Assembly (NCBI GenBank): GCA_963704885.1 | Contig: CAVPIB010000012.1 | Coordinates: forward strand, 1 to 13,895 | Length of the DNA: 13,895 bases | Origin: an uncultured Actinomycetes bacterium | Lineage (GTDB): Bacteria; Actinomycetota; UBA4738; HRBIN12 | Direction: 5' to 3' | Part shown: one piece after another, positions 1 to 13,895 of the stretch | How positions within the stretch are numbered: the stretch's first letter is position 1 | How the letters are laid out: every line of letters begins with the position of its first letter | Notes under the pieces: model-generated | Databases searched by the model: none | The model's input: the letters and a program-made list of their open reading frames with translations, nothing else | What the model was told of the DNA's origin: nothing | Translations under genes and position numbers: made by a program

Positions 1-46
1 GAGCGGCAACCGCATGGCCGATGCCGGCTGATAGACGGCACCTGAT

Positions 47-328
47 TCAGGAAGCGAAGGAAGAGGAACGACCATCCTGGATCGTGACGATAACGACGCG
101 GTCATCCTCTTCCAGATGGACGTACACGATGATCATCCAACGCCAAGGGCCGAGGAGGAAACGGAGACCCGTCCATCGACCGGTGAGCTCCGCGCCGAGC
201 CGCGGGAACCGGGTCAACGGGGCGATCGATCGGTTGATCCGCTTCCGAGTGTCCAGAGGGAGGCTGTGCGAGCGGATCAGTCTGTCGAGATCTCCGACCG
301 CAGCCTCGGCGAGCTCGACACGAGCCAC
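47..328 (-). CDS. Type II toxin, RelE/ParE superfamily
   Basis: 93 aa with RelE/ParE pattern: N-terminal 'RVELAEAAVGDL', central 'FPRLG..L.G...GLR', C-terminal 'IIVY.....DRVVIVTIQDGR'. GTG start 3 nt after the stop of the upstream antitoxin-like gene. Confidence 0.8.
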   Translation of the reverse strand: MARVELAEAAVGDLDRLIRSHSLPLDTRKRINRSIAPLTRFPRLGAELTGRWTGLRFLLGPWRWMIIVYVHLEEDDRVVIVTIQDGRSSSFAS

Positions 329-331
329 CGC

Positions 332-589
332 TCAGAGCTCGTCGATCGAGATCGTCCGCTTCCTACGAGCCTGTCTGAGCCCGAGCTGTGCTCGCTCGAA
401 CGCACCGGAGATACCGTCCAAGACCTGCACGACGTTGTCCGCGTCGACGTCGGCCTCGTCGATCGCCTGGGATAGGAGCGACCGCGCCAGCGTTCCCTCC
501 TGCACGTGCGTCCTCTCGGCCAGGCGGGCGAGTTTGGCCGCGTACTCGTCGTCGAGCGTGACGTTCAGACGTTCGCTGCCGCGAGCCAT
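332..589 (-). CDS. Type II antitoxin, ribbon-helix-helix (CopG-like)
   Basis: 85 aa from ATG 589 (MARGSERLNVTLDDEYAAKLARLAERT...LARSLLSQAID): RHH strand-helix-helix pattern, acidic middle and 'RTISIDEL' tail. Directly upstream of the toxin. The start is supported by a -10 box 6 nt upstream. Confidence 0.78.
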   Translation of the reverse strand: MARGSERLNVTLDDEYAAKLARLAERTHVQEGTLARSLLSQAIDEADVDADNVVQVLDGISGAFERAQLGLRQARRKRTISIDEL

Positions 590-595
590 GGACGA

Positions 596-604
596 ACCAT
601 AGCA
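596..604 (-). promoter_or_regulatory. Extended -10 (TGcTATGGT), probable leaderless promoter of the TA operon
   Basis: Minus strand reads TGC-TATGGT-tcgtcc-ATG(589): TGn plus TANNNT, 6 nt before the start codon, with no SD sequence. Confidence 0.55.
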
Positions 605-897
605 CGGGACCACACTATCCGTGTACCCTCAGCGCAGCCTATTGCTCCGGCGAGGCGCTGTGGAACCGGCGAGACCCGGTCCGGTTGAAGCTGGCCGGCG
701 GCCGGACCTGCTCGATCTCTGGCGCGAGACGGTGCGGATCAGTTGGAGCTGAAAGGGGTGCATCACACGCGCTCCAGCATGAGCGCGTGCGGCTTCAACG
801 GGTCCTCCGGTCAGCTAGATCCCGGTCGTTCGCCTCTGGCTGACGACCGCCAGATGCAGGAGCGTGATCTGAGGATCCGCCCATCAAGGAGGTCGCC

Positions 898-1410
898 ATG
901 TGGAGGCCGATCGCAATTTTCGTCGCCGGCTTGGTGCTGGTGCTCGCGACGATCGGGACCGTCTTCTTCGTCGGTATGCGGACGAAGTTCCCCCTCGTCC
1001 TCGATGTCGTTCGCCGTTTCAACCGAGCCGTCGGGAATCCGTATCAGATGAAGAGGGCAGGGACGCCGGGCGCGTACGCCTCGGTGATCCGACACGTCGG
1101 CCGCAAGACGGCCCGATCCTACGCAACGCCGGTGGTGCCCTACGCGACCGATGACGGGTTCGTGATCGCGTTGCCCTACGGGTCGCGTGCGGATTGGCTC
1201 AAGAATGTGCTCGCGAGCGGGTCAGCCACCATCGTCCATGAAGGGAATACGTACCGGGTCGACCAGCCGGAGCTCGTTCCCACAGCCGTGGCCGCACCGT
1301 ACATGCCGGTCAAGGAGCAACGGGACCTTCGCCGGTTCGCCATCGACCGGTGCCTCCGGGTAAGGCTGGCGGAGGCGGAGGAGGCATCCGAGCTCGAGAG
1401 CGTCCGATGA
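898..1410 (+). CDS. Deazaflavin (F420)-dependent nitroreductase-family oxidoreductase (Ddn/FDOR-like) with N-terminal membrane anchor
   Basis: SD AAGGAGG just upstream. Motifs 'IRHVGRKTARSYATPV', 'GFVIALPYG..ADWLKNVLASG.ATI'. Residues ~5-25 are hydrophobic. Confidence 0.85.
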   Translation: MWRPIAIFVAGLVLVLATIGTVFFVGMRTKFPLVLDVVRRFNRAVGNPYQMKRAGTPGAYASVIRHVGRKTARSYATPVVPYATDDGFVIALPYGSRADWLKNVLASGSATIVHEGNTYRVDQPELVPTAVAAPYMPVKEQRDLRRFAIDRCLRVRLAEAEEASELESVR

Positions 1411-1435
1411 AGCAGGTCGTTCCGGGTGAGTCGAT

Positions 1436-1510
1436 CTATGGGTCCTCGTTCAGGCGGTCGTACTCGGCGGCCACGCGTTTCGGCACCACCATCCGCCAGG
1501 CTTCGAGCAC
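1436..1510 (-). pseudogene. Probable C-terminal remnant of an MmcQ/YjbR-family gene, or a 24-aa peptide
   Basis: Frame reads VLEAWRMVVPKRVAAEYDRLNEDP*, resembling (from recall) the C-terminal helix of actinobacterial MmcQ/YjbR proteins. The upstream part of this frame runs into the neighbouring gene and is not protein-like. Confidence 0.4.
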
Positions 1511-1527
1511 CGGTTCGCCTCGCCTCC

Positions 1528-2157
1528 CTACGTCGCCGCCGCGGAGGGGTGGAACAGCGGGACGGCCGGCTTCCAGTCGGCGCGGAGAACCTCGACCATC
1601 GAAGGCAGCGTGACCACGATCGCTCGACCACCCTCGGGTCGCGGCACGCGCTCGACGTAGCCGGCCGGCGACCACCTCGCGAGGCGGGCGCCGACCACGA
1701 CCCATGGTGCGCCCTGCCGCAGGACGAAGGTCCCGTCGGGGAGGTCGTCGATCGGCGCTCCGTGGTGTCGCTGCCCACGCGTCACCGGGTCGACTCGCTC
1801 GGTGTGCAGTTGCACGTCGATCACATCGGCGCCGACCTGGTGCGGATGTTGTTCGCGCCAGATATCAGCGAAGCGCACGTAGTCCTCGCGGCGGCAGAGC
1901 GCGCATGGACGATGTCCGGCGGCGAACGCGGTCGCCTCGTCCAGGAAGAAGAGCTCGGTGAACCGACCCGGCTGCATGAGCGGGTGCCGGTGCCACCCGC
2001 GGAACTCAAGCCGACACGCGATCCAGCGCCTGCCGTTGTACCGGCGGCGGATCCGCCCGGCTTCGTCGTGAAGACAGCCGCGGTTGCCGTAGACGAGCCC
2101 GCGAGCCGGGTCGGCGATCACCTCACTGAACGGTGTGACCCGGTTCTGCAGGGGCAT
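1528..2157 (-). CDS. Conserved hypothetical protein with Ada-like Cys motif (putative Zn-binding)
   Basis: 209 aa with 'MPLQNRVTP', 'GNRGCLH', 'WIACRLEF', 'TELFFLDEATAFAAGHRPCALCR'. The last motif resembles the N-Ada 'FF....A..AGFRPCKRC' motif. GC-rich third codon positions. Confidence 0.8.
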   Translation of the reverse strand: MPLQNRVTPFSEVIADPARGLVYGNRGCLHDEAGRIRRRYNGRRWIACRLEFRGWHRHPLMQPGRFTELFFLDEATAFAAGHRPCALCRREDYVRFADIWREQHPHQVGADVIDVQLHTERVDPVTRGQRHHGAPIDDLPDGTFVLRQGAPWVVVGARLARWSPAGYVERVPRPEGGRAIVVTLPSMVEVLRADWKPAVPLFHPSAAAT

Positions 2158-2175
2158 CAGCGGATCATCTTCGGT

Positions 2176-2709
2176 TCATTGGGCCCGTGATAGCCGGTAG
2201 CGCAGTTCCACGAGGCCCGTGGAGTAGGGCTTCGCGTGGATCAGGTCGGCCGCCGCCGGCCCCGTGCCATCGAAGAGATGCACACCAGCACCCAGCACGA
2301 CGGGCACCATGAACAGGATCAGCTCGTCGATCGCCTGCGCGCCGAGGAACTGGGACGCGAGCTGCGCGCCTCCGACCAGGAACACGTCGCGATCCGTCGT
2401 CTCCCGGATCGACGGCGCCACGTCGGCCACCGCGCCGCTGACGAAGCGGACGGTCGCTACTTCCGGAGCCGGGAGCTCCCGGTGGGTGAAGACCCAGGTC
2501 GGTCGGTTCCCGTACGGCCACTCGCCGCGCGCGACCTCCTGTTCATAGGTGGTGGCACCCATGATCACGGCGTCGACCCCGGAGAGGAACCGTCGGTAGC
2601 CGTGATCCTCGCCTTCGACGTTGAAACGCTCCAGCCAAGCGACACCGCCGTCGGCATCGGCGATGAAGCCGTCCAGGCTCGCCGCGATGAAGAGCACGAT
2701 CTTGCCCAC
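2176..2709 (-). CDS. Dihydrofolate reductase family / RibD C-terminal domain protein
   Basis: 'IAASLDGFIA', 'IMGATTYE', 'VFLVGGAQLA', 'IDELILFMVPVVLGAG..LF', 'GLVELRY'. Confidence 0.9.
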   Translation of the reverse strand: MGKIVLFIAASLDGFIADADGGVAWLERFNVEGEDHGYRRFLSGVDAVIMGATTYEQEVARGEWPYGNRPTWVFTHRELPAPEVATVRFVSGAVADVAPSIRETTDRDVFLVGGAQLASQFLGAQAIDELILFMVPVVLGAGVHLFDGTGPAAADLIHAKPYSTGLVELRYRLSRAQ

Positions 2710-2719
2710 GAACCTAGCC

Positions 2720-2914
2720 CTACGTCAGGATCCACTCGGAGCGCCCGCTGGACCTGTCTCCGGTGAGCCACTGCCAGTCCAGATACATGCGCATCTGATC
2801 TTCCTCGTCCAGCGCGAACCTCTTGTGGGTCCTTCCCGCTTCGACCTCACCGCCCGACGGTCTTTCCCGCAAGATCCACAGCTTCCGCTCCTTCTGGCTA
2901 CCCACCTGAGGCAT
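2720..2914 (-). CDS. Possible small hypothetical protein (64 aa)
   Basis: ATG 2914 opens MPQVGSQKERKLWILRERP...EWILT*, ending 10 nt before the DHFR-family start. No clear SD and no recognisable family. Confidence 0.3.
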   Translation of the reverse strand: MPQVGSQKERKLWILRERPSGGEVEAGRTHKRFALDEEDQMRMYLDWQWLTGDRSSGRSEWILT

Positions 2915-2940
2915 AGTCTCAGAGGTCCGAAGGCGGCGCC

Positions 2941-3007
2941 CCGCTCCTGAACCACAGCCCCGACGGGCTACCCGCGGATGGTCAGATAGAGCCATCCACC
3001 GGAGCAG
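2941..3007 (-). ncRNA. Candidate structured RNA (three-stem junction)
   Basis: Minus-strand stems: CUGCUCC/GGAGCGG (3001-3007 with 2941-2947), GUGGAUGG/CCAUCCGC (2992-2999 with 2974-2981), UAGCCC/GGGCUG (2965-2970 with 2955-2960). Each non-Watson-Crick position is a G-U pair on this strand only. Confidence 0.3.
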
Positions 3008-3086
3008 ACTACCGATGTCCTTCGGGGCAACGAACCCTCCAGAGTCCCGACTCATGAAGAGCGGCCTGCGTGCCGACCATTGCACT

Positions 3087-3401
3087 ATGAGAGAACCGAT
3101 CCCGTTCCTTCGAGAGGCCGCTGTAACTATCGTGCCCCAGCTCTCGGACGAGCAGCTCGAACGCATCGGCGCCGAGCTCGCCTCGCAGAGCAACCCCTTC
3201 CTGCTGGTCAGCCGGGTGAGCGACTGCACGGCGTTGATCCAGGGGATCCCGGTAACCGCCGAGTCGCCGCACGAAGCCGACGCGCTCACGTGGGACATCG
3301 TCCACAGCCATGTGAGCGCAGCCTTGTGTGAACCGTGGGACTGGGACACGACCGTCACCGCGATCGACGTCCGATCGGCCGACGGGGCCCTCGCCTCCTA
3401 G
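3087..3401 (+). CDS. Hypothetical protein (104 aa)
   Basis: MREPIPFLREAAVTIVPQLSDEQLERIG...ADGALAS* with GC-rich third positions. ATG 3087 is preferred over 3015 because GACCAT-N6-ATG precedes it. Confidence 0.6.
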   Translation: MREPIPFLREAAVTIVPQLSDEQLERIGAELASQSNPFLLVSRVSDCTALIQGIPVTAESPHEADALTWDIVHSHVSAALCEPWDWDTTVTAIDVRSADGALAS

Positions 3402-3441
3402 CGCGAACCCGTAGCCGGACCTCGATACGGAAGCGTCGCAG

Positions 3442-3513
3442 AGCCGGAGCGGGGATTCGAACCCCGGACCTACCACTTACGAGGCGGTTGCTCTACCACT
3501 GAGCTACTCCGGC
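3442..3513 (-). tRNA. tRNA-Thr (anticodon CGT)
   Basis: GCCGGAG-TA-GCTCAGTGGTAGAGC-A-ACCGC-CTCGTAA-GTGGT-AGGTC-CGGGG-TTCGAAT-CCCCG-CTCCGGC-T: complete cloverleaf; CCA not encoded. Confidence 0.97.
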
Positions 3514-3524
3514 GGCGGCTGCCG

Positions 3525-3530
3525 AGTCTA
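3525..3530 (-). promoter_or_regulatory. Putative -10 box (TAGACT) of the tRNA promoter
   Basis: TANNNT hexamer 11 nt upstream of the mature tRNA 5' end, followed by a GC-rich discriminator-like stretch. Confidence 0.5.
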
Positions 3531-3611
3531 CCGAACGGGTGCTGGCACCACGGGAGGAGCGGCGGTCTGCACGGTCGTCGAGTTGAGCCTCCATCAGCGA
3601 TGATGCCCTCT

Positions 3612-5723
3612 ATGAGCTCCGGCGGAAGCGTCAACATCCAGGGGCAGGTCGGCCGTGTGATGGTGGGGACCGACCGCTCGGAGACCGCCGAGCGCGCCGT
3701 TCGGTGGGCCGCCTCTTTCGCGGAGCTGTACGCCGCCGACCTCCATATCGTTCAGGTGATCGTGCCGCGCAACCCGGCCGACACCGAGTTCGGAGCCGCC
3801 GAGGCCACCCGGGCCCGCGGCGCCGCCGACGAGCTCCAGACCTACGCCACCCAGATCGCGGGCGAGCGCGGCCGCGGCCACGTGGTGATCGACGACGACC
3901 CCGCCATGGCGATCGTGCACGCCACCGAGGAGCACGCTATCGACGTCTTGGTCGTTGGCAACGCGGGGATGGCCGGCCGCAAGGAGTTCCTACTGGGCAA
4001 CGTCCCTAACCGGATCAGCCACAACGCGCGTTGCACCGTGATCATCGTGAACACGGCCGGAGACGGACAGGCGGCCGCGACCGGCGTTCCGCGCGCACCT
4101 GCATCGATCCGCTCAAGCGCCGTCGAGGTCGAGACCGAGCCGCACCTGGTCGCGCGCGGCACCAAGATCGCGAGCGTCTTCGCCAAGCACGGACTGAAGG
4201 AGCTGTTCGGCCGGCCCGACGAGGAGGGATCGGTCGGCAAGGTCCGTCAGGCTAAGCGCCTGCGCTCGGCCCTGGAGGAGCTGGGGCCGACGTTCGCCAA
4301 GATCGGGCAGATCCTGTCCACGCGGCCCGACCTGCTGCCCCCGGAGTTCATCCAGGAGCTGGCCACCCTGCAGGACGACGTGCCACCGCTCTCCGAGGAA
4401 CAGGTGGTCCGGGTCATGGAGCAGGAGCTGGGAGTGCCGTGGGAAGACGTGTTCGACCACATCGAGACTCAGCCGCTGGCCGCAGGCACGATCGCACAGG
4501 TGCATCGGGCCGTGTTGGCGAACGCCGAGCGGGTCGTGATCAAGGTCCAGCGGCCCGACGCCAAAGAGCAGATCGAGCAGGATCTGGCCCTGTTGGAGGT
4601 CTTCGCCGAGAAGGTGAGCCACCGCCCCGGACTCAAGCAGGTGATCGACATGGAGGCGGTGTTCATGCATCTGTCGGAGTCGCTCCATCGCGAGCTGGAT
4701 TTCCGGCAGGAGGCCGGGAACATGCGTCGCCTGGCGGCCGTGATCGAGCCGTTCAGCCGACTGCGGGTACCCGATGTGCACGGCGACTACTCGACGTCGC
4801 GCCTGCTGGTGATGCGCGACGTGGCCGGCGGTCCCCTCTCTTCGGCCCCCGAGGGTGGTCCGCGCAGGGAGGCGGCTCGGCAACTGCTGGAGTCCTTCTA
4901 CAAGCAGATCCTGGTCGACGGCTTCTTCCACGCGGATCCGCATCCCGGGAACCTCATGTGGCAGCCCGAGGAAGAGCTCCTCTACTTCTTAGACCTGGGC
5001 ATGGTCGGCGAGGTCGGCGCCGAGATGCGCGAGCAGATGATGCTGCTGCTCATGGCCTTCTGGCAGGAGGATGTGGGTTTCCTGACCGACGTATCGCTCA
5101 TGCTCGCGGGCGCGATCGATCGCAGCGATCTGGACGTCGACGCGTTCAGCGAGGAGATCGGCGAGCTGATGGCCAAGAACCGCACCGCTTCGCTGAAAGA
5201 CATCCAGTTGGGCCCCGTGCTTCAGGAGATGACTGAGATCTCGATCCGCCACGGCGTGCCGCTGCCGGCGTCGCTCACGCTCACCGGAAAGGCGCTCGCT
5301 CAGATGCAGCTGGCCGCAGCGGAGCTCGACCCCGAGCTGGATCCGTTCGACGTTGCGGGCAGCTTCCTGATGCGCGCCGTGACGAAGGACATAGGTTCGA
5401 AGTTCGATCTGAAGGCGGTCTTCTATCAGACCCAGAAGTTCAGGGTGCGGGCCATGCGGGTGGTCGAGGCGGTGGAGCGTCTGATCGGCGCGAGGCCGGG
5501 ACAGAAGCTGGAGGTCAACTTCCGGGCCTCAACGCTGGAGACGACGATCCGGCGAGCGGGCAGGCGCCTCGCGTTGGGTTTGACCGCGGGCGCGGCCATC
5601 CTGGCGACGTCGCTCTCGGCTTTGTCCGCGCGTGTCGCCGGCTGGGTGCCTGCAGCGTTCGGCGTCGTGGCCGGACTGCTCACGCTGGCGCTGGTCGTCG
5701 ACCTGATCCGGCGGCGCGACTAG
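3612..5723 (+). CDS. Universal stress protein domain fused to ABC1/AarF/UbiB-family atypical kinase, with C-terminal membrane anchor
   Basis: N-terminal USP ('VMVGTDRSETAERAVRWA', 'VVGNAGMAGRKEFLLGNVPNRISHNARCTVIIVNT'), Ala/Pro linker, then UbiB motifs 'LGPTFAKIGQILSTRPDLLP' (KxGQ), 'PLAAGTIAQVHRA', 'VIKVQRP', 'ELDFRQEA', 'GFFHADPHPGN', 'LDLGMVG', and two hydrophobic C-terminal helices. The start could be 3600, 3603 or 3612. Confidence 0.92.
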   Translation: MSSGGSVNIQGQVGRVMVGTDRSETAERAVRWAASFAELYAADLHIVQVIVPRNPADTEFGAAEATRARGAADELQTYATQIAGERGRGHVVIDDDPAMAIVHATEEHAIDVLVVGNAGMAGRKEFLLGNVPNRISHNARCTVIIVNTAGDGQAAATGVPRAPASIRSSAVEVETEPHLVARGTKIASVFAKHGLKELFGRPDEEGSVGKVRQAKRLRSALEELGPTFAKIGQILSTRPDLLPPEFIQELATLQDDVPPLSEEQVVRVMEQELGVPWEDVFDHIETQPLAAGTIAQVHRAVLANAERVVIKVQRPDAKEQIEQDLALLEVFAEKVSHRPGLKQVIDMEAVFMHLSESLHRELDFRQEAGNMRRLAAVIEPFSRLRVPDVHGDYSTSRLLVMRDVAGGPLSSAPEGGPRREAARQLLESFYKQILVDGFFHADPHPGNLMWQPEEELLYFLDLGMVGEVGAEMREQMMLLLMAFWQEDVGFLTDVSLMLAGAIDRSDLDVDAFSEEIGELMAKNRTASLKDIQLGPVLQEMTEISIRHGVPLPASLTLTGKALAQMQLAAAELDPELDPFDVAGSFLMRAVTKDIGSKFDLKAVFYQTQKFRVRAMRVVEAVERLIGARPGQKLEVNFRASTLETTIRRAGRRLALGLTAGAAILATSLSALSARVAGWVPAAFGVVAGLLTLALVVDLIRRRD

Positions 5724-5741
5724 TCCAGCTCAGACTAGTCG
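5717..5741. terminator. Hairpin between convergent genes (possible bidirectional terminator)
   Basis: CGACTAGTC-cagctca-GACTAGTCG: 9-bp perfect stem overlapping the stop at 5723. No U-tract. Confidence 0.4.
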
Positions 5742-5753
5742 GTCGGCCGAAGA

Positions 5754-5954
5754 TCACTGCTCGTCGAGCTTCGCCTCCGTCCCTTTCGTGGTGATGGTCG
5801 TGGGTTCCAGCGGTGTGGCGCCGCCCTTCCTCCTCACCGAGCGCATGACGACCTTCTCCAGCACGAAGGCGATCACCGCCATGATCACGCCGACGGCCCA
5901 GCGTTCGAAACGGCGGATCCCTTTCGGCTTCTTGATCGTGACGTGCCCGGTCAC
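5754..5954 (-). CDS. Small basic single-TM protein (66 aa)
   Basis: GTG start overlaps the kinase stop (GTGA, 5951-5954) with GAGGT upstream. Reads MTGHVTIKKPKGIRRFERWAVGVIMAVIAFVLEKVVMRSVRRKGG...KLDEQ with GC-rich third positions. Confidence 0.7.
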   Translation of the reverse strand: MTGHVTIKKPKGIRRFERWAVGVIMAVIAFVLEKVVMRSVRRKGGATPLEPTTITTKGTEAKLDEQ

Positions 5955-8059
5955 GCGGGCACCTCGGCATCCGGCAGGCGGAGGCGCCCCTCGATCGTCG
6001 TGCCGCGCCCCGGCGCCGATGTGACCACGAGCCCGCCGTCCTGAGCGCCCAGTCGGTCGGCCATCCCCTGCAGACCGGAACCGCCGACGGTTGATGCCGG
6101 ATCGAAGCCGTGACCATCGTCCGCAACGATGAACGTGAGCTCGCGATCGCGTTCGGCGAGCGACACGGTCACCGAGGACGCGTCCGCGTACTTGGCCACG
6201 TTCTGTAGCGCCTCCAGGCACGAGAAGTAGACGGCGGCCTCGACCTCCTGTGGGTAGCGACCTAGCCCGTCGGCCTCGATCTGCACCGGCAGGCCACTCT
6301 TGCGGCCCTGTGCCGCGAGAGCGGCGGCGAGACCCTTATCGGCCAGGAGCGGTGGGTATATGCCCCTCGCCAGGTCTCGCAGGTCCTCGAGTGCGGAGTT
6401 CGTCTCGCCTTGGAGCTGAGCGAGCAACTCATGGGCTTGCGTCGCGTCGCGCTCGACCACGCCATCCGCCAGCCGCAGTTTCACCGACAGCGCCACCAAC
6501 TGTTGCTGCGCGCCGTCGTGGATGTTGCGCTCCAGCTTGCGACGCTCCTCATCCTGGGCCGAGACCAACCGGCGCTGCGCCGCCTTCAGGTCCTCGAGCC
6601 GGGCCTTGAGCTCCTCGGTCAAGCGGACGTTCCGAAGCACCAACCCTGCCTGGGACGCCAGGCCGGCGATCAGCTTCTCATCCGCTGCGGAGACCGGATC
6701 GCTCACCGGTTTGCGCACCGCGAGCGCGCCCAGCAACTCACCGCCCTGTTCGACCGGATAGACGCGGTCGGCACCCTCGATCAGTGGCATCGCGCCGTTC
6801 GCCAAGGGGATCGCCGCTGTGCCGCTCGCGTCTGGAGGCCAGGCCGCGACATCGCGGAGCTCCCGGTCGACCGCCAGCCAGACGTCGGCCCGATCGGCGC
6901 CGACCCCTTCGCCCAGGATGCGGGCCATACGCCGCAAGACGTCTTCGTCGGCGTAGGCCTCCCCCACTCGCTCGGAGAACTCGGAGAGGACCTCGTAAGG
7001 TGTCGCGCGCTTGCCGTACACCAATCGGTTCGCGAACCGACCGGCCCGGTTGCGTATCGGGAAGATCAGCAACCCGATCGCCAGGCCGATCAGCACCTGC
7101 CAAGCATCTACGCCCGACCCTGAGCCGCGTCCGAGCACGATGGTCGGCAGGGCGATCGCCACCATCAGGTAGAAGGCCGTCACCGCCACGACCACCGTAG
7201 CGAAGATCACGGTCTTCTTGATCACGACGTCCAGGTCGTAGAGGTGGAAACGAAGAACGGCGATGCCGATCGAGAGCGGGAACATGAGGAAGGCCAGCCC
7301 ACCGATCACGGCACTCAGCACCCCTGTCTGGCTGAAGAAGCTGCTGATGACGATCGCCGCGAGGGCGGCCCCGAAGCCGAACACCACCCACTTGATCTGC
7401 TGGCGCTCCACGCCCGCCGACCTGCGGAAGCGGAGGATCAACGAGACGACCGAGGCCGCGAAGATCGCGGGGTACATGATCCCGATGATCGGGTCTAGGT
7501 CAGGCAGGCTCCCAACCGCGTCGACGTAAAGGGGGTTCACCGTCTCGACGTCCCCCGAACCGGTCAGGGTTGGTTGCCCGAACACGAGGCCGACCGCGAT
7601 AAGGGCGACTAACGCCGCGATCACCCACAGCAACGGTCGCCATCTCCTTGATGGGAGATGGCCGTCCGGGAACAACAGCGGCAGGAGGAACACGGTCAGC
7701 AGGATCCCGAAGAGCCACCCCGCGCCGTTGATGAGGCCACTCGATGTGACCCACCAATCGTCGTATCCACGAGGCACCGCGTACGTGAGGATCTCTCCGG
7801 AGAGGAAGGACGCGGCCGTCATGAACGACGCCCACATGAGGAGGAACCCGATAGTGTTCCGTCTGTCGCGGCTGAGGATGAGCGCGCCGACCACGCCGAA
7901 CATCGAGAACGCGATCACGTACGGGATCTGCTCGGCAAGGGACTCGCCGTTGAGCTCGACGAGGACCATGCTGGCCGTCGCCACCACAAGGAAGCCGGCG
8001 AAAACCACCCAGGGCCACCGCGCCGGACGCGCGATCTCCACCTCAGCCGAGGACGACAC
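5951..8059 (-). CDS. Multi-TM sensor histidine kinase (HisKA_3/NarL-type) with GAF-like region; HK1
   Basis: About 9 hydrophobic segments, H-box 'ERRKLERNIHDGAQQQL', N-box 'EALQNVAKYA', G1 'DDGHGF', G2 'GSGLQGMADRL'. GTG 8059 has GGAGG 6 nt upstream and overlaps the end of the cyclase gene. Confidence 0.93.
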   Translation of the reverse strand: MSSSAEVEIARPARWPWVVFAGFLVVATASMVLVELNGESLAEQIPYVIAFSMFGVVGALILSRDRRNTIGFLLMWASFMTAASFLSGEILTYAVPRGYDDWWVTSSGLINGAGWLFGILLTVFLLPLLFPDGHLPSRRWRPLLWVIAALVALIAVGLVFGQPTLTGSGDVETVNPLYVDAVGSLPDLDPIIGIMYPAIFAASVVSLILRFRRSAGVERQQIKWVVFGFGAALAAIVISSFFSQTGVLSAVIGGLAFLMFPLSIGIAVLRFHLYDLDVVIKKTVIFATVVVAVTAFYLMVAIALPTIVLGRGSGSGVDAWQVLIGLAIGLLIFPIRNRAGRFANRLVYGKRATPYEVLSEFSERVGEAYADEDVLRRMARILGEGVGADRADVWLAVDRELRDVAAWPPDASGTAAIPLANGAMPLIEGADRVYPVEQGGELLGALAVRKPVSDPVSAADEKLIAGLASQAGLVLRNVRLTEELKARLEDLKAAQRRLVSAQDEERRKLERNIHDGAQQQLVALSVKLRLADGVVERDATQAHELLAQLQGETNSALEDLRDLARGIYPPLLADKGLAAALAAQGRKSGLPVQIEADGLGRYPQEVEAAVYFSCLEALQNVAKYADASSVTVSLAERDRELTFIVADDGHGFDPASTVGGSGLQGMADRLGAQDGGLVVTSAPGRGTTIEGRLRLPDAEVPA

Positions 8060-9320
8060 GGAACACCTCCACTGGTTCCTCACGCCCCTTCACGTGACGC
8101 GTTCCGATGGGTTCGCTCGCGACACTCGGCGCCGCGGCGACGGTCGACGCTGCGGCCACGATCTCGCCGCCCTCGGCCTCGGACTGCAACCGCTGGGCGA
8201 TGTTCACGGCGTCGCCCACAACCGTGTACTCGAGGCGGCCACCTCCTCCGACCGTCCCGGCGATCACCAGACCGGTGTTCACGCCGATCCCGACCCTGAG
8301 CTCCGGAACGTCTGCGTCCCAGCCCTGCGTGTTCAGCTCCGCTTGGCGCTGTTGCATGGCGATCGCGCAGCGCAGCGCTCGTTCGGCGTGATCGGATGTG
8401 GGCTCAGGAGCTCCGAAGACGACCATCACAGCATCCCCCTGGAACTTGTCGATCATGCCGCCCATCGACAGGACCACCTCCGCCATCGCGGTGAGGTGCT
8501 TGCCGACGACCGTCGCGACGATTCGCGCGGGGAGGCGTTCGGCGAGCGTCGAGAACCCTCGGATGTCCGAGAACAGGACGCTAACCTCTACCTCCTGCGG
8601 CTCGATGGCGATGTCGGGGTGCGCGGCCAACCGATCGGCCAGCTGTTGTGGGACGAACGACGCGAGCGTCTTGCGGGAGGTCGTCTGCTCGACGACGGCT
8701 GCGTGGAGGCGCTTGAACTCGTCCACGAGCCCGGCACCGGCACCGTCGCCGGCCATCCGCTTGAACAACGCGGTGACCTGCGAATCGACGGCCTCTTGGG
8801 TGGTCCCCAGCGCCTCTGCGATCTCCGCGTAGCCAAGACCCTTGGCCATCATGTCGAGCAACTCGCGCTCACGCTCTACCGTGTCGCCGCGGCCCGACAG
8901 GCGCTCGGCGATCGTCGGATCCACGGTGCTGCCTCCCGCGTGTACCTCTCGGATCGCACGAGCGAGCTCGTCGCCCTGGGAGATGCGGTCCTTCAAGAGG
9001 TAGGCCAGGCCGCTATGACCGCCGCCGAGCAAGGCGAGCGCGTAGGCCTCGTCGTCGTGGGCAGACAGGACGACGACGCCGGTATCGGGGTGCGAAGAGC
9101 GGATCGCGTGCGCGCAATCGATCCCCTCCAGCTGGAACGACGGCGGCATCTTGATGTCGGTCACGACGACGTCGGGCGTATGCTCGGCGGCGGTCTCCAG
9201 CAGCGAGGGCGCGTCGACCGCGACCCCGACCACCTCGATGTCTTCGTAGGAATCCAGCAGCGCCCGGACGCCTTCGCGTACGAGGACGTTGTCCTCCCCA
9301 AGCACGACCCGGATGCTCAT
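8043..9320 (-). CDS. Response regulator (REC + degenerate LuxR HTH) fused to a class III adenylate cyclase
   Basis: REC with E9/D10, D55, S86, K110. HTH-like 'ERERELLDMMAKGLGYAEIAEALG'. Cyclase 'VLFSDIRGFS' (D252), 'IDKFQGD' (K292, D296), 'EYTVVGDAVNIAQR' (T366, N373, R377), 'VKGREEPV'. GGAGG 7 nt upstream of the ATG. Confidence 0.93.
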   Translation of the reverse strand: MSIRVVLGEDNVLVREGVRALLDSYEDIEVVGVAVDAPSLLETAAEHTPDVVVTDIKMPPSFQLEGIDCAHAIRSSHPDTGVVVLSAHDDEAYALALLGGGHSGLAYLLKDRISQGDELARAIREVHAGGSTVDPTIAERLSGRGDTVERERELLDMMAKGLGYAEIAEALGTTQEAVDSQVTALFKRMAGDGAGAGLVDEFKRLHAAVVEQTTSRKTLASFVPQQLADRLAAHPDIAIEPQEVEVSVLFSDIRGFSTLAERLPARIVATVVGKHLTAMAEVVLSMGGMIDKFQGDAVMVVFGAPEPTSDHAERALRCAIAMQQRQAELNTQGWDADVPELRVGIGVNTGLVIAGTVGGGGRLEYTVVGDAVNIAQRLQSEAEGGEIVAAASTVAAAPSVASEPIGTRHVKGREEPVEVFRVVLG

Positions 9321-9352
9321 CCCGCTGCCTCCGACCGCTCGATGCCCGCGTG

Positions 9353-9358
9353 TACCAT
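9353..9358 (+). promoter_or_regulatory. -10 box (TACCAT), probable leaderless promoter of the response regulator
   Basis: TACCAT-ccgcgc-ATG(9365), with no SD sequence. Confidence 0.55.
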
Positions 9359-9364
9359 CCGCGC

Positions 9365-10033
9365 ATGATCCGCGTTGTGTTCGCCGAGGATAACTACCTG
9401 GTCAGGGAGGGGACGGCAGCCCTCCTGGCCACCTCGGATCAGATCGAGCTGGTCGGAACCGCGACCACGCGCGACGAGCTGCTCTCGGCCGTCGAGGAGC
9501 ACTCCCCCGACGCGGTCCTCACGGACATCCGCATGCCCCCGACCGGGACCAACGAGGGCATCGAGGCCGCGAAGACGATCCGCTCCACCCACCCGGCGAT
9601 CGGTGTGGTCGTGTTGTCGCAGTTCGTCGAGGAGGACTACGCGTTCGACCTGCTGAAGGACGGCGCCGCCGGCCTCGGCTATCTGCTCAAGGAGCGGGTC
9701 GCCGACGTGGACGAGCTGGTTAGGGCGCTGGGAGAGGTCGCCCGTGGAGGCAGCGTGCTCGACCCCAAGGTCGTCGAGGCGCTCGTCTCGGCCAAGGAGC
9801 GCATGGCGCACTCGCCCCTCGCGCAGCTGACCGATCGCGAACGCGAGGTGCTCTCGCACATGGCGCAAGGAGAGAACAACGCGGCGATCGCCAAGTCGCT
9901 CTTCCTCACCGAACGCGCCGTCGAGAAGCACATCAACTCCCTTTTCCACAAGCTGGGTCTCACGGAGGAGCCCGACGTGCACCGCCGGGTGATGGCAGTG
10001 CTCGCGTTCCTCCGCGAGACCGGCGACGCCTGA
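9365..10033 (+). CDS. NarL/FixJ-family DNA-binding response regulator (REC + LuxR HTH)
   Basis: 'MIRVVFAEDNYLVREG', 'VLTDIRMPP' (D54), 'GYLLKERV', 'LTDREREVLSHMAQGENNAAIAKSLFLTERAVEKHINSLFHKLGL'. Confidence 0.95.
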   Translation: MIRVVFAEDNYLVREGTAALLATSDQIELVGTATTRDELLSAVEEHSPDAVLTDIRMPPTGTNEGIEAAKTIRSTHPAIGVVVLSQFVEEDYAFDLLKDGAAGLGYLLKERVADVDELVRALGEVARGGSVLDPKVVEALVSAKERMAHSPLAQLTDREREVLSHMAQGENNAAIAKSLFLTERAVEKHINSLFHKLGLTEEPDVHRRVMAVLAFLRETGDA

Positions 10034-10035
10034 CA

Positions 10036-10443
10036 TCACTGCGCTCGGCGCGTATCCACGATGAACACCGAGCAAGGCGCGTGGCGCAGGATCATGTTCG
10101 GGACGCTGTCGCGAACGTGCCACCGTCCGCCCTGCGCCCCTCGGTTGCCCACCACGATCGTTTCCGCCAGCTCCTCGGCCGCCACCTCACAGATGCGCTC
10201 GGCCGGCTCTCCTCGCTCAACGCGAGTGCGGGCCGCGACGTCGGGGAACCGCGTCGCTATCCGAGCCAGGTACGCGGAGGGGTCCGCCGCCCGATCGGGG
10301 TCGACCACCGCACGCAGTTCGGACTCGGGCTGCACGTACAGGACCAATAGCTCGGCCCCACGGTCGCGTGCTAGCCGGGCGGCGCTCTCTACGGCCAGAT
10401 CGGCCGCTGCGGATGTATCCGTTCCTACCAAGACGGTGCTCAT
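10036..10443 (-). CDS. Universal stress protein (single domain, 135 aa)
   Basis: ATG 10443 with GAGGAGG upstream. 'MSTVLVGTDTSAAADLAV..A..LA', 'GEPAERICEVA', 'IVVGNRG', 'SVPNMILRHAPCSVFIVDT'. Confidence 0.92.
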   Translation of the reverse strand: MSTVLVGTDTSAAADLAVESAARLARDRGAELLVLYVQPESELRAVVDPDRAADPSAYLARIATRFPDVAARTRVERGEPAERICEVAAEELAETIVVGNRGAQGGRWHVRDSVPNMILRHAPCSVFIVDTRRAQ

Positions 10444-10521
10444 CTGGGGCCTCCTCACTCGTCGCCCCGAACGTACGCTCGGGGGAAGGCGGGGACAGCC
10501 CGGCCGCCACCACCGTTTCCA

Positions 10522-10555
10522 GTGGGTAGCACCACCCACCGGCGGTGGTCTCCAC
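10522..10555. promoter_or_regulatory. GTGG/CCAC inverted-repeat cluster, candidate regulator binding site
   Basis: GTGG-gtagca-CCAC (10522-10535), CCACC-ggc-GGTGG (10536-10548) and GTGG-tct-CCAC (10545-10555) lie in the divergent USP / kinase-operon intergenic region. Confidence 0.4.
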
Positions 10556-10617
10556 TCGCGAACGAAGGCGGGTACCGCCCTTCCGGCCGGGGCTGCGAGG
10601 GGGCGACAATCCGGGGC

Positions 10618-10758
10618 ATGACGACGACCATGGAGGGACGGCCTCAGCTGGCCTTGACCCTGGCCATCACAGGCTCGGTCATCGGAACGCTCATCGCCGG
10701 GAGCCAGCAGCGTCTCACGATGCGTCATCCGATGGTAGGCGCGGAGGACGCATCGTGA
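10618..10758 (+). CDS. Small hydrophobic peptide (46 aa) leading the kinase operon
   Basis: MTTTMEGRPQLALTLAITGSVIGTLIAGSQQRLTMRHPMVGAEDAS*. GACAAT-N7-ATG upstream; its stop overlaps the HK2 start (GTGA, 10755-10758). Confidence 0.5.
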   Translation: MTTTMEGRPQLALTLAITGSVIGTLIAGSQQRLTMRHPMVGAEDAS

Positions 10759-12971
10759 GTCCCGCGACAGCGAAACGCCTTTCGCGCGGGATCATCGGGG
10801 TCGCGCTCGTGATGATCGCGATCTCGCTCTTCGTCGGCATCGCGTCCTCCAAGCACCAACAGCCGGGGCGCATCTTCATCGTCGGTGATGCGACCGTCGG
10901 TGACGGGCCGCTGGTTCATAAGGCGCTCATCGAACGCCAGACGGAGGGCGAGACGTTCACGGTCGGAGCGGTCAACCCGCAGATCGTGATCGCGTTGGTC
11001 GTCGGTCTGCTCTGGATGATCACCGGATCGCTGATCGTGTCGCGCCAGCCGCGGAACGCCGCGGGCTGGATCTTCCTCGCGATCGGTGTTGCCCTCCCTC
11101 TCAGTGGCATGGCCACCACGCTCGCCGTGACGGGTGTGAAGACCGTTGCCGCCTCGGTGCCGCTGGTCGGTCTCTGGGCGGTCGTCAACGAATACAGCTC
11201 CCTTCCGGTCGTCCTGCTCCCCCTGCTCTTCCTGCTCTTCCCCGACGGACGGCCGCCCACGCCTCGCTGGCGATGGGCCGAGCGTGCTTTGTTCGCGGGG
11301 CTCGCGATCGCCATCGTGGGGTTCACGCTGTCCCCGGGGCCACTGAACAACCTCGTCGACCCCGGCATCCTGTACGAGAACCCGATCGGGATCCCCGCGT
11401 TCGCCGGCGTGTCCGACGCGATGACGACGATCGGCGTCGTGTTGTGCCTCATCGCCGGCTTCTCCACGGTCTTCGCGGTCCGAGGTCGCTTCAAGCGCTC
11501 GACGGGCGAGGAACGCCAACAGCTCCGCTGGCTCGTGTTCGTAGCGACGACCGCCGGGATCTTGTTCACGATCCTCTTCGGGATCACCGTCCCCGGCGAT
11601 GTCATCGGCCCGGTGTTCGGAAGCTTGCCGATCTTCGCCGTCCTCTTCCTCCTCCTGGCCGTCGTGATCGCGTTCGGCGTTCCCGGCGCCTACCTGGTCG
11701 CGATCTTCCGATACGGGCTGTGGGAGCTGGACGTCGTGGTGCGCAAGACGATCGTGTATGTGGTACTGGCCTTCCTGCTGCTCGGGACCGGGATCGCGTT
11801 CGTCTGGTTCATAACCGGACTGTTCGCCTCGACGGCTGCGTCGAACGGAAGGGTGGACCTGCTGGCGGGTGTGGCGATCGGTCTGTTGTTCTGGCCGCTT
11901 CGCAAGCTCGCGGTCAGGGTCGCCGATCGTCTCGTCTACGGGGGGCGAGCCACGCCCTACGAGGTTCTGACCTCGTTCGCAGGACGGGTTGGGGAGACAT
12001 ATTCGACCGACGACATCTTGCCCCGGATGGCGCAGGTGCTGGCGAAGGGAGTCGGGGCACAAGGGGCGACGGTGTGGCTCCGGGTCGGGAACGAGCTCCG
12101 CCCCGCCATGACCTGGCCGGTCGGCGCGCCGGATCCGGCTCCGGTGAGGCTGACCGCAGACGCTTTGCCAGTGATCTCCGATCAGCACGCGTCCGAGGTG
12201 AGAGATCAGGGCGAGCTCTTGGGCGCGCTCTCCGTGGCGATGTCCGCCTCGGATCCGATGACGCCCGGGAAGGAAAGGCTGGTCCGCGACCTAGCGTCAC
12301 AAGCCGGACTGGTCCTCCGAAACGTACGCCTGATAGAGGAGCTCCGGGCGTCGCGACAACGACTGGTCACCGCGCAGGACGAGGAGCGGCGCAAGCTCGA
12401 GCGCAACATCCACGACGGAGCGCAGCAGCAGCTGGTCGCCCTCGCGGTCAAGCTCCGGTTAGCGGACACGTTGATGGAACGCGACCCCACGAAGGCCCAC
12501 GAGCTGATGACGCAGCTGCAAGCAGAGACCCACGATGCGTTGGAGGATCTGCGCGACCTCGCACGTGGGATCTATCCGCCGCTGCTCGCGGACAAGGGAT
12601 TGCCTGCCGCACTCGAGGCCCAGGCCAGGAAGGCGGCCGTGCCGACAACGGTGGTCGCCGACGGCGTGACTCGGCACTCGCAGGACGTGGAGGCCGCGGT
12701 CTACTTCTCCTGTCTGGAGGCGATGAGCAACGTCGCGAAGTACGCCTACGCGGCCAGCGCATCCATCGAACTGACCCAAGCCAACGGCCACCTCACATTC
12801 GTGGTCAAGGACGACGGGCGGGGGTTCGATACGCAGGCCAACGGCTACGGAACGGGGCTGCAGGGGATCGCGGATCGGCTCGATGCGATCGGCGGAACGC
12901 TGTCGGTAGCCAGCCGAACGGGAGCTGGGACGACGATCACCGGCACGGTGCCGGAGGCGGTGGAACGATGA
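10755..12971 (+). CDS. Multi-TM sensor histidine kinase (HisKA_3/NarL-type) with GAF-like region; HK2
   Basis: GTG 10755 with GGAGG at 10743-10747. Multi-TM N-terminal half, 'ERRKLERNIHDGAQQQL', 'EAMSNVAKYA', 'DDGRGF', 'GTGLQGIADRL'. Paralog of HK1. Confidence 0.93.
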   Translation: MSPATAKRLSRGIIGVALVMIAISLFVGIASSKHQQPGRIFIVGDATVGDGPLVHKALIERQTEGETFTVGAVNPQIVIALVVGLLWMITGSLIVSRQPRNAAGWIFLAIGVALPLSGMATTLAVTGVKTVAASVPLVGLWAVVNEYSSLPVVLLPLLFLLFPDGRPPTPRWRWAERALFAGLAIAIVGFTLSPGPLNNLVDPGILYENPIGIPAFAGVSDAMTTIGVVLCLIAGFSTVFAVRGRFKRSTGEERQQLRWLVFVATTAGILFTILFGITVPGDVIGPVFGSLPIFAVLFLLLAVVIAFGVPGAYLVAIFRYGLWELDVVVRKTIVYVVLAFLLLGTGIAFVWFITGLFASTAASNGRVDLLAGVAIGLLFWPLRKLAVRVADRLVYGGRATPYEVLTSFAGRVGETYSTDDILPRMAQVLAKGVGAQGATVWLRVGNELRPAMTWPVGAPDPAPVRLTADALPVISDQHASEVRDQGELLGALSVAMSASDPMTPGKERLVRDLASQAGLVLRNVRLIEELRASRQRLVTAQDEERRKLERNIHDGAQQQLVALAVKLRLADTLMERDPTKAHELMTQLQAETHDALEDLRDLARGIYPPLLADKGLPAALEAQARKAAVPTTVVADGVTRHSQDVEAAVYFSCLEAMSNVAKYAYAASASIELTQANGHLTFVVKDDGRGFDTQANGYGTGLQGIADRLDAIGGTLSVASRTGAGTTITGTVPEAVER

Positions 12972-13895
12972 AAGGGAGTCGCTGGACCCGTTGGCTGGCG
13001 CTTGGGATCTGGCTCGTCACGCTCCTCCTGTTGTTGCTCGCCGTCATCCTGTCGATCGGCGACCCGGCGAACGAGGTGAAGGACCTGCCGTTCGCCCTCG
13101 GCTTGGGGGTCGGCATGCTGGCCTTCGGCACGATCGGCGCGGTCCTCGCGACCCAGGCACCGAGGAACCCGATCGGATGGCTCTACGGGCTCGCCGCGTT
13201 CGGCGTGGTCCTCAGCGTGAGCGCGGAGCAGTACGCCATCCGAGGGCTCGAGGACCTGACCAACCTGCCGGCCGTTCCGTACATCTACTGGTTGCACCAG
13301 GTCATCACCCCGATCGCGATGTCGCTCATCCCGATCGCGCTCGTTCTCTTCCCCGACGGCCACCTCCTCTCTCGGCGCTGGCGTCCGATCCTGTGGTCCC
13401 TGTTCGCCGCGGCGGTGCTGGGATCGTTCGCGTCGGCGTTCTTCGAAGACATGTTTCAGGTCGGCGAGTCCGCGTACGTGAGGAACCCGTTCAGCATCGG
13501 ATCCGGAGCTGGCGATCGTCTCTGGCCACTGCTGATCGGCCTGCTGCTGGTGGGGATCGTGGGATCGCTCTCGTCGGTGATGATCCGATACCGCAGGTCC
13601 GAGGCAGAGCAGCGCCAGCAGCTCCGTTGGCTGGCCGCCGCCGTGCTGGTCATCGGCGTCGCGGGTGTCGTTGCGCTCGCGATCGGCTTCCTGCCGCCAA
13701 CCGATGTGACCGGGATCCTGAGCGCCGTCGCAGGCTATGTCATGTTGGCCGCCGCAACGATCGGACTCCCCGCCGCGACCGCGGTCGCGATCCTGCGGTA
13801 CCACCTCTACGACCTCGACCTGGTCGTGAAGAAGACGGTCGTGTTCACGATCGTGGCGGTATTCCTCACTGGCCTCTACATAGCGGCTCTGGCGT
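12968..13895 (+). CDS. Third paralogous multi-TM sensor, probably a histidine kinase; HK3 (3' truncated by the window edge)
   Basis: Absent from the ORF track (no stop in the window). ATG overlaps the HK2 stop (ATGA). Manual translation MKGSRWTRWLALGIWLV...PRNPIGWLY...LFPDGHLLSRRWRP...RYRRSEAEQRQQLRW...AILRYHLYDLDLVVKKTVVF shares the membrane-domain motifs of HK1 and HK2. The kinase core lies outside the window. Confidence 0.88.
   Translation, partial: MKGSRWTRWLALGIWLVTLLLLLLAVILSIGDPANEVKDLPFALGLGVGMLAFGTIGAVLATQAPRNPIGWLYGLAAFGVVLSVSAEQYAIRGLEDLTNLPAVPYIYWLHQVITPIAMSLIPIALVLFPDGHLLSRRWRPILWSLFAAAVLGSFASAFFEDMFQVGESAYVRNPFSIGSGAGDRLWPLLIGLLLVGIVGSLSSVMIRYRRSEAEQRQQLRWLAAAVLVIGVAGVVALAIGFLPPTDVTGILSAVAGYVMLAAATIGLPAATAVAILRYHLYDLDLVVKKTVVFTIVAVFLTGLYIAALA

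Follow-up and report, generated by a model that had tools for sequence, protein, structure and literature searches.

What does a two-component response regulator deliver as its output when it begins like a NarL-type transcription factor and ends in a nucleotide cyclase? The question is raised by an open reading frame (ORF) in a stretch of 13,895 nucleotides (contig CAVPIB010000012.1, positions 1 to 13,895, assembly GCA_963704885.1; hereafter the window, i.e. the whole stretch of DNA analysed) from an uncultured Actinomycetes bacterium (Actinomycetota; UBA4738; HRBIN12). The ORF, located at 8043..9320 on the minus strand, encodes 425 aa plus stop. A preliminary description, based on the letters of the stretch, had read it as a NarL-type regulator repurposed as an enzyme, with a receiver (REC), an eroded LuxR-type helix-turn-helix (HTH) and a catalytically complete class IIIb cyclase, and had proposed that DNA binding was lost and that phosphorylation-driven dimerisation switches the cyclase. 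In the present analysis the protein was found to be most likely a phosphorylation-controlled class IIIb adenylate cyclase, in which the HTH acts as a structural transducer; since a response regulator here ends in an adenylate cyclase, cAMP and not direct control of genes is its likely output. The explanation as a whole, namely a soluble, homodimeric class IIIb-type adenylate cyclase serving as a two-component output, with the HTH kept as folded spacer and interface, is regarded as probable.

Pfam resolved the protein into Response_reg at residues 6-104 (58.5 bits), GerE at residues 149-189 (22.1 bits, just short of the cutoff of 23.5; the match spans positions 5-45 of a profile of 57) and Guanylate_cyc at residues 244-416 (84 bits, with a cutoff of 21.9), and found no ATPase domain in the 425 aa. 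NCBIfam holds no model for the family; its best matches, models of NarL-type regulators far below their cutoffs, all end near residue 189. As all three domains are present and every residue cited in the preliminary description (D252, K292, D296, T366, N373 and R377) stands at its number, the observation is confirmed: REC, eroded LuxR-type HTH and catalytically complete cyclase are borne out by Pfam, residue positions, homology and structure models.

The gene is widely shared. A word-indexed search retrieved upwards of 120 clusters, 413-432 aa long and 81-97% identical, every one with precomputed PF00211 and PF00072, many of which are already named ‘class 3 adenylate cyclase/DNA-binding NarL/FixJ family response regulator’ by one source. 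Relatives are encoded in 266 stretches (one-genome-per-species contigs), and 79 of these, at 68-92% identity and with orthologues located by tblastn, were compared as loci; 78 of the 79 belong to metagenome-assembled genomes (MAGs) of uncultured Actinomycetota. In 400 pairs drawn from 75 orthologues, dN/dS was 0.13 in the receiver, the most conserved part of the protein, 0.18 in the inter-domain helix, 0.26 in the HTH, 0.41 in the linker (residues 191-243) and 0.26 in the cyclase. With relatives in 266 stretches and dN/dS between 0.13 and 0.41 in every segment, the gene is considered real. Three loci were conspicuous in other respects: L026 has an orthologue at 82% identity on a contig of 1843 nt whose MAG bears the label Candidatus Velamenicoccus archaeovorus, a placement which is probably a binning error, while L038:6004-7263 carries an in-frame stop and the match at L068:6001-7271 is split (best segment 6001-6711), so that both may be pseudogenes or assembly errors.

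The catalytic domain belongs to class III, as its Guanylate_cyc score lies well above the cutoff; all 57 family members match this profile. It retains the metal-binding D252 and D296, the substrate-specifying K292 and T366 and the transition-state residues N373 and R377, all aligned with those of CyaB and CyaC. Among the 75 orthologues D252, D296 and R377 are invariant and T366 and N373 occur in 74; position 292 is occupied by K in 69, by Q in five and by E in one (the six without K being L015, L055, L058, L060, L062 and L071), and the K/T pair is found in 68. By profile and fold the closest solved relatives are Cya2, CyaB, CyaC and bPAC (BLUF cyclases), and CyaB of P. aeruginosa (3r5g) superimposes on the cyclase domain with a TM of 0.90 and an rmsd of 1.4 Å. 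K292 and T366 lie opposite the K/T of CyaB (3r5g) and CyaC (1wc1), and opposite the E/G of the guanylate cyclase Cya2. By the definition that Linder and Schultz reportedly gave in 2003, class IIIb enzymes combine a Lys with a Thr (or Ser) at the site otherwise held by the substrate-specifying Asp, which is what K292/T366 present. The length of the dimerisation arm is a further feature by which IIIb and IIIc are told apart. The assignment by Lys plus Thr in the preliminary description is upheld in so far as the pair is that of CyaB and CyaC, the latter being called a type IIIb cyclase in the excerpted text of PMC3009899. Judged from these residues, cAMP would be the product.

At the other end, residues 1-127 show what characterises a NarL/FixJ receiver, i.e. 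an acidic pair (E9/D10), the phospho-acceptor D55, a Ser/Thr (S86), an aromatic switch residue (Y107) and a Lys (K110). D10, D55, S86, Y107 and K110 were present in 75/75 orthologues, and position 9 is always E or D.

The homology of residues 1-189 to NarL-type regulators identifies the middle region as the descendant of a LuxR-type HTH. Residues 3-189 align with residues 7-202 of the regulator encoded next to the cyclase gene (9350..10033) at 47% identity (E 1e-53), hhalign gave a probability of 100 over residues 4-192, and in profile searches NarL, VraR, DevR, DesR and ChrA align with the cyclase protein through their HTH. In the AlphaFold models the HTH helices comprise residues 149-159, 164-171 and 175-190/192, the third being the ‘recognition’ helix TTQEAVDSQVTALFKRM; the recognition-helix strings that had been compared in the preliminary description begin at residue 173 here and at residue 186 in the neighbour. 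The HTH reached a pLDDT of about 80 in the full-length AF2 model and of 90-94 in a model of the N-terminal part (pTM 0.83), whose best fold matches are full-length VraR, DesR, LiaR, RcsB and NarL with 190-215 aligned columns. As models and fold matches alike give an HTH of the NarL family, the middle region does model as an HTH, so that the refuting observation which the preliminary description had named for this region (a failure to model as one) was not made.

This HTH is eroded, yet it is not decaying. GerE stays under its curated cutoff here and scores 53 bits in the neighbour; it was recovered at E<=0.01 in just five of the 57 family members, and in none of the distant relatives among the representatives of the HMMER scan. 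When the 75 cyclase orthologues were compared with 68 copies of the paralogous regulator, residues invariant in the paralogue were found exchanged in the cyclase protein: R189 for E176 (74/75), N176-N177 for G163-Y164 (75/75) and N196 for T183 (73/75), and H194 is replaced by R or Q. The Arg/Lys and Asn positions are those which we take to be DNA-contacting in the NarL and DosR complexes. In addition, nine residues ahead of the first HTH helix are deleted, which leaves an inter-domain segment shorter than that of the paralogous regulator, and the HTH carries on average a net charge of -4.5 in the cyclase orthologues as compared with +0.4 in the paralogues. The dN/dS of the HTH equals that of the cyclase and lies under that of the linker.

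Distant relatives extend the picture. Full-length relatives are few among the 50%-identity representatives of an exhaustive HMMER scan (P0127 at 71%, P0131 at 48%, P0137 at 46% and P0133 at 43%); in P0133, which has an additional C-terminal receiver, and in P0137 the HTH is no longer detectable, and P0140 (39% identity overall) has a matching receiver and cyclase with the HTH segment absent in the alignment. REC-cyclase proteins without HTH are common among the representatives (P0140, P0215, P0246, P0257, P0271). The representative P0239 shows a cyclase-like domain followed by a receiver and an intact GerE (57 bits). Because residues are lost, P0140 has dispensed with the domain and dN/dS is like that of the cyclase, the HTH appears to be kept as a folded domain for a role other than reading DNA. 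The sequence changes fit a loss of DNA binding, which the preliminary description had assumed and which we infer here as well.

Behind the HTH, homology to NarL-type regulators stops at residue 189-192 and is followed by a Gly-rich loop and a helix. The earlier statement that the last LuxR helix is replaced by a helical linker can be retained as regards this end of homology and the new helix, and is settled only in part as regards the replacement itself. MAFFT placed D200/K203/R204/A207 opposite the last helix of the paralogue; the profile score of residues 199-212 against that helix was 5.2, a value exceeded at six other offsets of 214 and reached in 769 of 20,000 column shuffles. A surviving fourth LuxR helix at residues 199-212 was consequently dropped as a candidate, as hhalign ends at 192 and the profile score is not significant. 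The cyclase transducer element (CTE) is found in subclasses IIIa and IIIb, and in agreement with IIIb a CTE precedes the catalytic core here: residues 216-235 match the CTE of Cya2, and RKTLASFVPQQL of residues 216-243 aligns with RNTFGRYLTDQV of Cya2 in 6fht. The protein reads LASF where Cya2 (6fht) has the motif FGRY, described as a CTE motif in the excerpted text of PMC5995499.

A homodimer was predicted with an ipSAE of 0.75 in the median run, the best control reaching 0.00; among proteins of solved structure, the mark applied was attained by 20 of the 30 that are pairs of one chain and by one of the 23 that are single chains. Class III cyclases form head-to-tail homodimers with the active sites at the interface, and because such dimers have already been solved, the pass of the model may partly reflect memory of, or likeness to, known structures. 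The runs had at least 67% of contacts in common and a partner pLDDT of at least 81. Three parts make up the interface, namely a parallel coiled coil over residues 198-235 (self-contacts at 205, 209, 212, 216 and 219), the canonical cyclase interface, whose cross-chain contacts include those of 292 with 364/366, and HTH residues 158-161, 182, 186 and 189-191. In the model the helix after the HTH and the CTE form the parallel coiled coil beneath a canonical cyclase dimer.

The proposal that phosphorylation drives dimerisation and so switches activity is not supported as it was worded, because in the model the cyclase, the linker coiled coil and a portion of the HTH hold the two chains together, and no receiver residue lies in the confident interface. 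A constitutive dimer, in which phosphorylation would alter the geometry of the linker, fits the model at least as well. In the mechanism proposed here, a HisKA_3 kinase (the neighbouring HK1 as a candidate, and possibly HK2 too) would phosphorylate D55, and the three-helix bundle derived from the HTH would relay the change in the receiver to the parallel coiled coil (~198-215) and the CTE (216-243), whereby the geometry of the cyclase dimer would shift and the rate of cAMP synthesis would change in one direction or the other. The HTH would have given up DNA reading and would be retained as folded spacer and interface. By origin the protein would be a NarL-type regulator, paralogous to its divergent neighbour, to which a cyclase and the transducer element belonging to it were joined where the HTH ends.

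Table 1. Features of the window; residue numbers refer to the cyclase protein.
Feature	Position	Strand	Basis
Complete ORF with REC, HTH remnant, helical linker/CTE and class III cyclase	8043..9320	-	Pfam and residue check
Receiver domain, residues 1-127	8940..9320	-	Pfam, residues in 75 orthologues, AF2 models
Inter-domain segment of the NarL family, residues 128-147, with GGSxVDPxI motif and a helix at 135-142	8880..8939	-	Alignment, AF2 N-terminal model
Vestigial LuxR/GerE HTH, residues 148-192	8745..8879	-	GerE 22.1 bits, identity to neighbour, hhalign, models
Gly-rich loop 191-197 and helix ~198-215	8676..8744	-	AF2 models, dimer model
CTE-like segment, residues 216-243	8592..8675	-	Alignment to Cya2 in 6fht
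Class III cyclase catalytic domain, residues 244-425	8046..8591	-	Pfam, catalytic residues, structure matches
Canonical NarL-type regulator (REC + GerE 53 bits), paralogous to the cyclase protein over the latter's N-terminal half	9350..10033	+	Pfam, alignment
HK1, membrane histidine kinase (HisKA_3 + HATPase_c), directly downstream of the cyclase gene	5951..8083	-	Pfam
HK2, second HisKA_3 histidine kinase, HK1 paralogue; true start uncertain	10545..12971	+	Pfam, alignment
Single-domain universal stress protein (Usp); longer ORF to 10728	10036..10443	-	Pfam; conserved neighbour
Usp-ABC1/UbiB-like kinase fusion	3600-5723	+	
RibD C-terminal (reductase) domain ORF (69 bits)	2176-2709	-	Pfam

The surroundings of the cyclase gene (Table 1) are conserved as well. 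The divergent NarL-type paralogue is adjacent in all 72 loci that could be scored, with a median of 29 nt between the two start codons (range -1 to 79; 9321-9349 in the window). No promoter, including none of sigma-70 type, and no terminator was found in the divergent region 9150-9550, which includes the gap of ~29 nt; promoters must overlap coding regions or the mRNAs are leaderless. A conserved stretch of 15 nt before an internal ATG of the regulator proved in the intergenic alignment to be coding (M/V-Y-H-P-R-M), so that the start of the regulator at 9350 stands. On the other side, the GTG start of HK1 lies inside the cyclase gene near its 3' end, so that the two genes share 41 nt (8043-8083), and in 13 of 79 loci the kinase match begins 3-37 nt before the cyclase match ends; these overlaps suggest translational coupling, and HK1 is presumed to be the cognate kinase. 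Taken over the 69 scorable loci, a HisKA_3 kinase on the same strand starts between -100 and +400 nt downstream in 46. HK2 and HK1 are 49% identical overall and share 29/33 residues around the phospho-His and 67/85 of the DHp, compared with 69/194 of the membrane sensor. Their near-identical DHp and the similarity of the two receivers suggest that both kinases may be able to serve both regulators, and the comparison hints at a shared partner specificity with different inputs.

Beyond the NarL paralogue a Usp gene was found in 60 of 67 loci. The mycobacterial USPs Rv1636 and MSMEG_3811 are reported as cAMP-binding (PMC11107214); to their structures the Usp of the window gave weak matches (5ahw, E 1.9e-5; 1tq8, E 3.2e-5), and it is a possible cAMP receiver. 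Apart from the RibD_C-like protein Pfam found nothing on the remaining ORFs of the window; most long ORFs in 1-3600 and 12845-13895 were unmatched, and many of these are likely shadow frames of high-GC DNA.

Several observations weigh against the explanation favoured here. The variation of K292, which extends to Q at the equivalent position of the distant relatives P0133, P0137 and P0140, implies that specificity for ATP is not uniform across the family, and nucleotide specificity may differ within it. Residues 192-222 have a pLDDT below 50 in the full-length monomer model, and as no receiver residue lies in the confident dimer interface, the model is silent on how phosphorylation acts. The exposed residues T173, T174, E176, D179 and T183 of the ‘recognition’ helix are almost invariant and must therefore have some role, perhaps in contact with a ligand other than a neighbouring domain; the counterpart of D179 in the canonical paralogue is E192, so that acidic residues are not all signs of erosion. 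Finally, in 21 of the 69 loci no kinase was encountered in the 2.5 kb downstream, which means that the partner kinase is not set by gene order.

The near-invariance of surface residues in the third helix is also what speaks for a dual output, i.e. an HTH which still binds DNA (or RNA) in a protein that, once phosphorylated, both regulates transcription and makes cAMP. Such an HTH would agree with the confident three-helix fold, with purifying selection as strong as in the cyclase and with a GerE score merely 1.4 bits under the cutoff in the window copy. We give this reading a small chance, considering that few family members (5/57) retain a GerE match, that the charge is reversed at the paralogue-invariant Arg, the conserved N-N and N are gone and the net charge has fallen to -4.5, that the third helix contributes its C-terminal half (182, 186, 189-191) to the predicted dimer interface, and that one relative, P0140, does without the domain.

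Little credence is likewise given to the receiver as a phosphate sink, which would share kinases with the adjacent regulator and tune it, while the cyclase would be constitutive or would respond to another input, for instance bicarbonate/CO2, as do other enzymes that have Thr at this position. The two receivers are indeed 54% identical (64/118; 9/14 in helix alpha-1), the kinases are alike where they meet their partners and differ in their sensors, the two regulators are adjacent throughout, the dimer model lacks receiver contacts, and the excerpted text of PMC3383692 describes the Thr of the substrate pair as a presumed predictor of regulation by bicarbonate in sAC-like cyclases. A sink, however, would leave the retention of the HTH unexplained, and the receiver is both the most conserved segment and covalently joined to the cyclase by a conserved helical path; in CyaC, moreover, the cyclase is activated by phosphorylation of the adjacent receiver, as stated in the excerpted text of PMC3009899. 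It is very improbable that the cyclase domain forms cGMP or some further cyclic nucleotide in place of cAMP, or that it serves for dimerisation without catalysis: Q or E at position 292 in 6/75 orthologues, Q in distant relatives and the Gln-Asn pair tied to a side guanylate cyclase activity of a mycobacterial enzyme (excerpted text of bioRxiv 10.1101/2024.03.06.583649) are outweighed by the K/T of the adenylate cyclases CyaB and CyaC, here and in 68/75 orthologues, where the guanylate cyclase Cya2 has E/G, and by the metal Asp pair and R377 in 75/75 and N373 in 74/75.

A phosphorylation-controlled adenylate cyclase of this kind is no new signalling principle, since receiver-regulated class IIIb cyclases are known from CyaC of Spirulina (Arthrospira) platensis and Anabaena, where a receiver likewise precedes a catalytic domain of class IIIb type that has a K/T pair. 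CyaC, however, is a large hybrid with GAF domains, a histidine kinase of its own, two receivers and no HTH between receiver and cyclase, whereas the protein of the window is a stand-alone regulator of 425 aa with a NarL-type receiver, an HTH remnant and a kinase encoded by a separate gene. With the NarL/FixJ regulators (NarL, VraR, LiaR, DesR and the neighbour) it has in common the homologous residues 1-189/192, a complete receiver active site and a HisKA_3 partner; it differs from them by an HTH below the cutoff, the lost paralogue-invariant residues, an unrecognisable fourth helix and 230 added aa of linker and cyclase. Response regulators with enzymatic output usually have the receiver joined directly to the enzyme. 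In the short REC-cyclase regulators already named, among which P0140 shares the NarL-type receiver and the cyclase subtype, a class III cyclase also comes after the receiver, but 50-70 residues without an HTH-like bundle lie between the two. A helical linker and CTE before the catalytic core are also found in the Cya2 fusion of 6fht, bPAC and OaPAC, which rank with the best matches by profile and fold, in keeping with the parallel coiled coil predicted here; the sensor is a phytochrome artificially replacing the CHASE2 of Cya2 itself in 6fht and BLUF in bPAC and OaPAC, and here a receiver with the HTH remnant.

In the mycobacterial proteins Rv0386, Rv1358 and Rv2488c, which also come from Actinomycetota, a single polypeptide carries a class III cyclase together with a LuxR-type HTH. 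According to the excerpted texts of PMC3466318 and bioRxiv 10.1101/2024.03.06.583649, proteins of the Rv0386 type consist of a cyclase, a large ATPase and an intact C-terminal LuxR HTH, and the latter source describes their cyclases as class IIIc; they thus differ in reversed order, the lack of a receiver and a length of ~1,000 aa, and the preliminary description was right to distinguish the domain order REC-HTH-cyclase, with no ATPase domain by Pfam, from theirs. No REC-HTH-cyclase protein was described in the literature searched, although the response-regulator classification of Galperin (2006), outside that search, may list one; the excerpted text of the census paper PMC1183210 contains nothing on such proteins.

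What sets the protein apart is an ancestry still legible in its sequence, in that an entire NarL-type transcription factor has been retained, the HTH of which would have become a folded connector. Together with its relatives it forms a natural series, from the intact paralogue over the eroded HTH of the window protein and the undetectable HTH of P0133 and P0137 to the deleted HTH of P0140, which is useful for asking by what route a receiver signal reaches a class III cyclase and how a domain made for DNA binding takes on another task. The interest thus lies in the exaptation of a DNA-binding domain and in an apparently hard-wired pairing of transcriptional and cAMP output. As a tentative and rather doubtful extension, exaptation could be combined with a convergence of the signals of two kinases on one phosphorylation node, from which transcription and cAMP would both be served, with Usps maybe as receivers of the cAMP. 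The family is abundant in uncultured soil Actinomycetota, in which it would link two-component signalling to cAMP.

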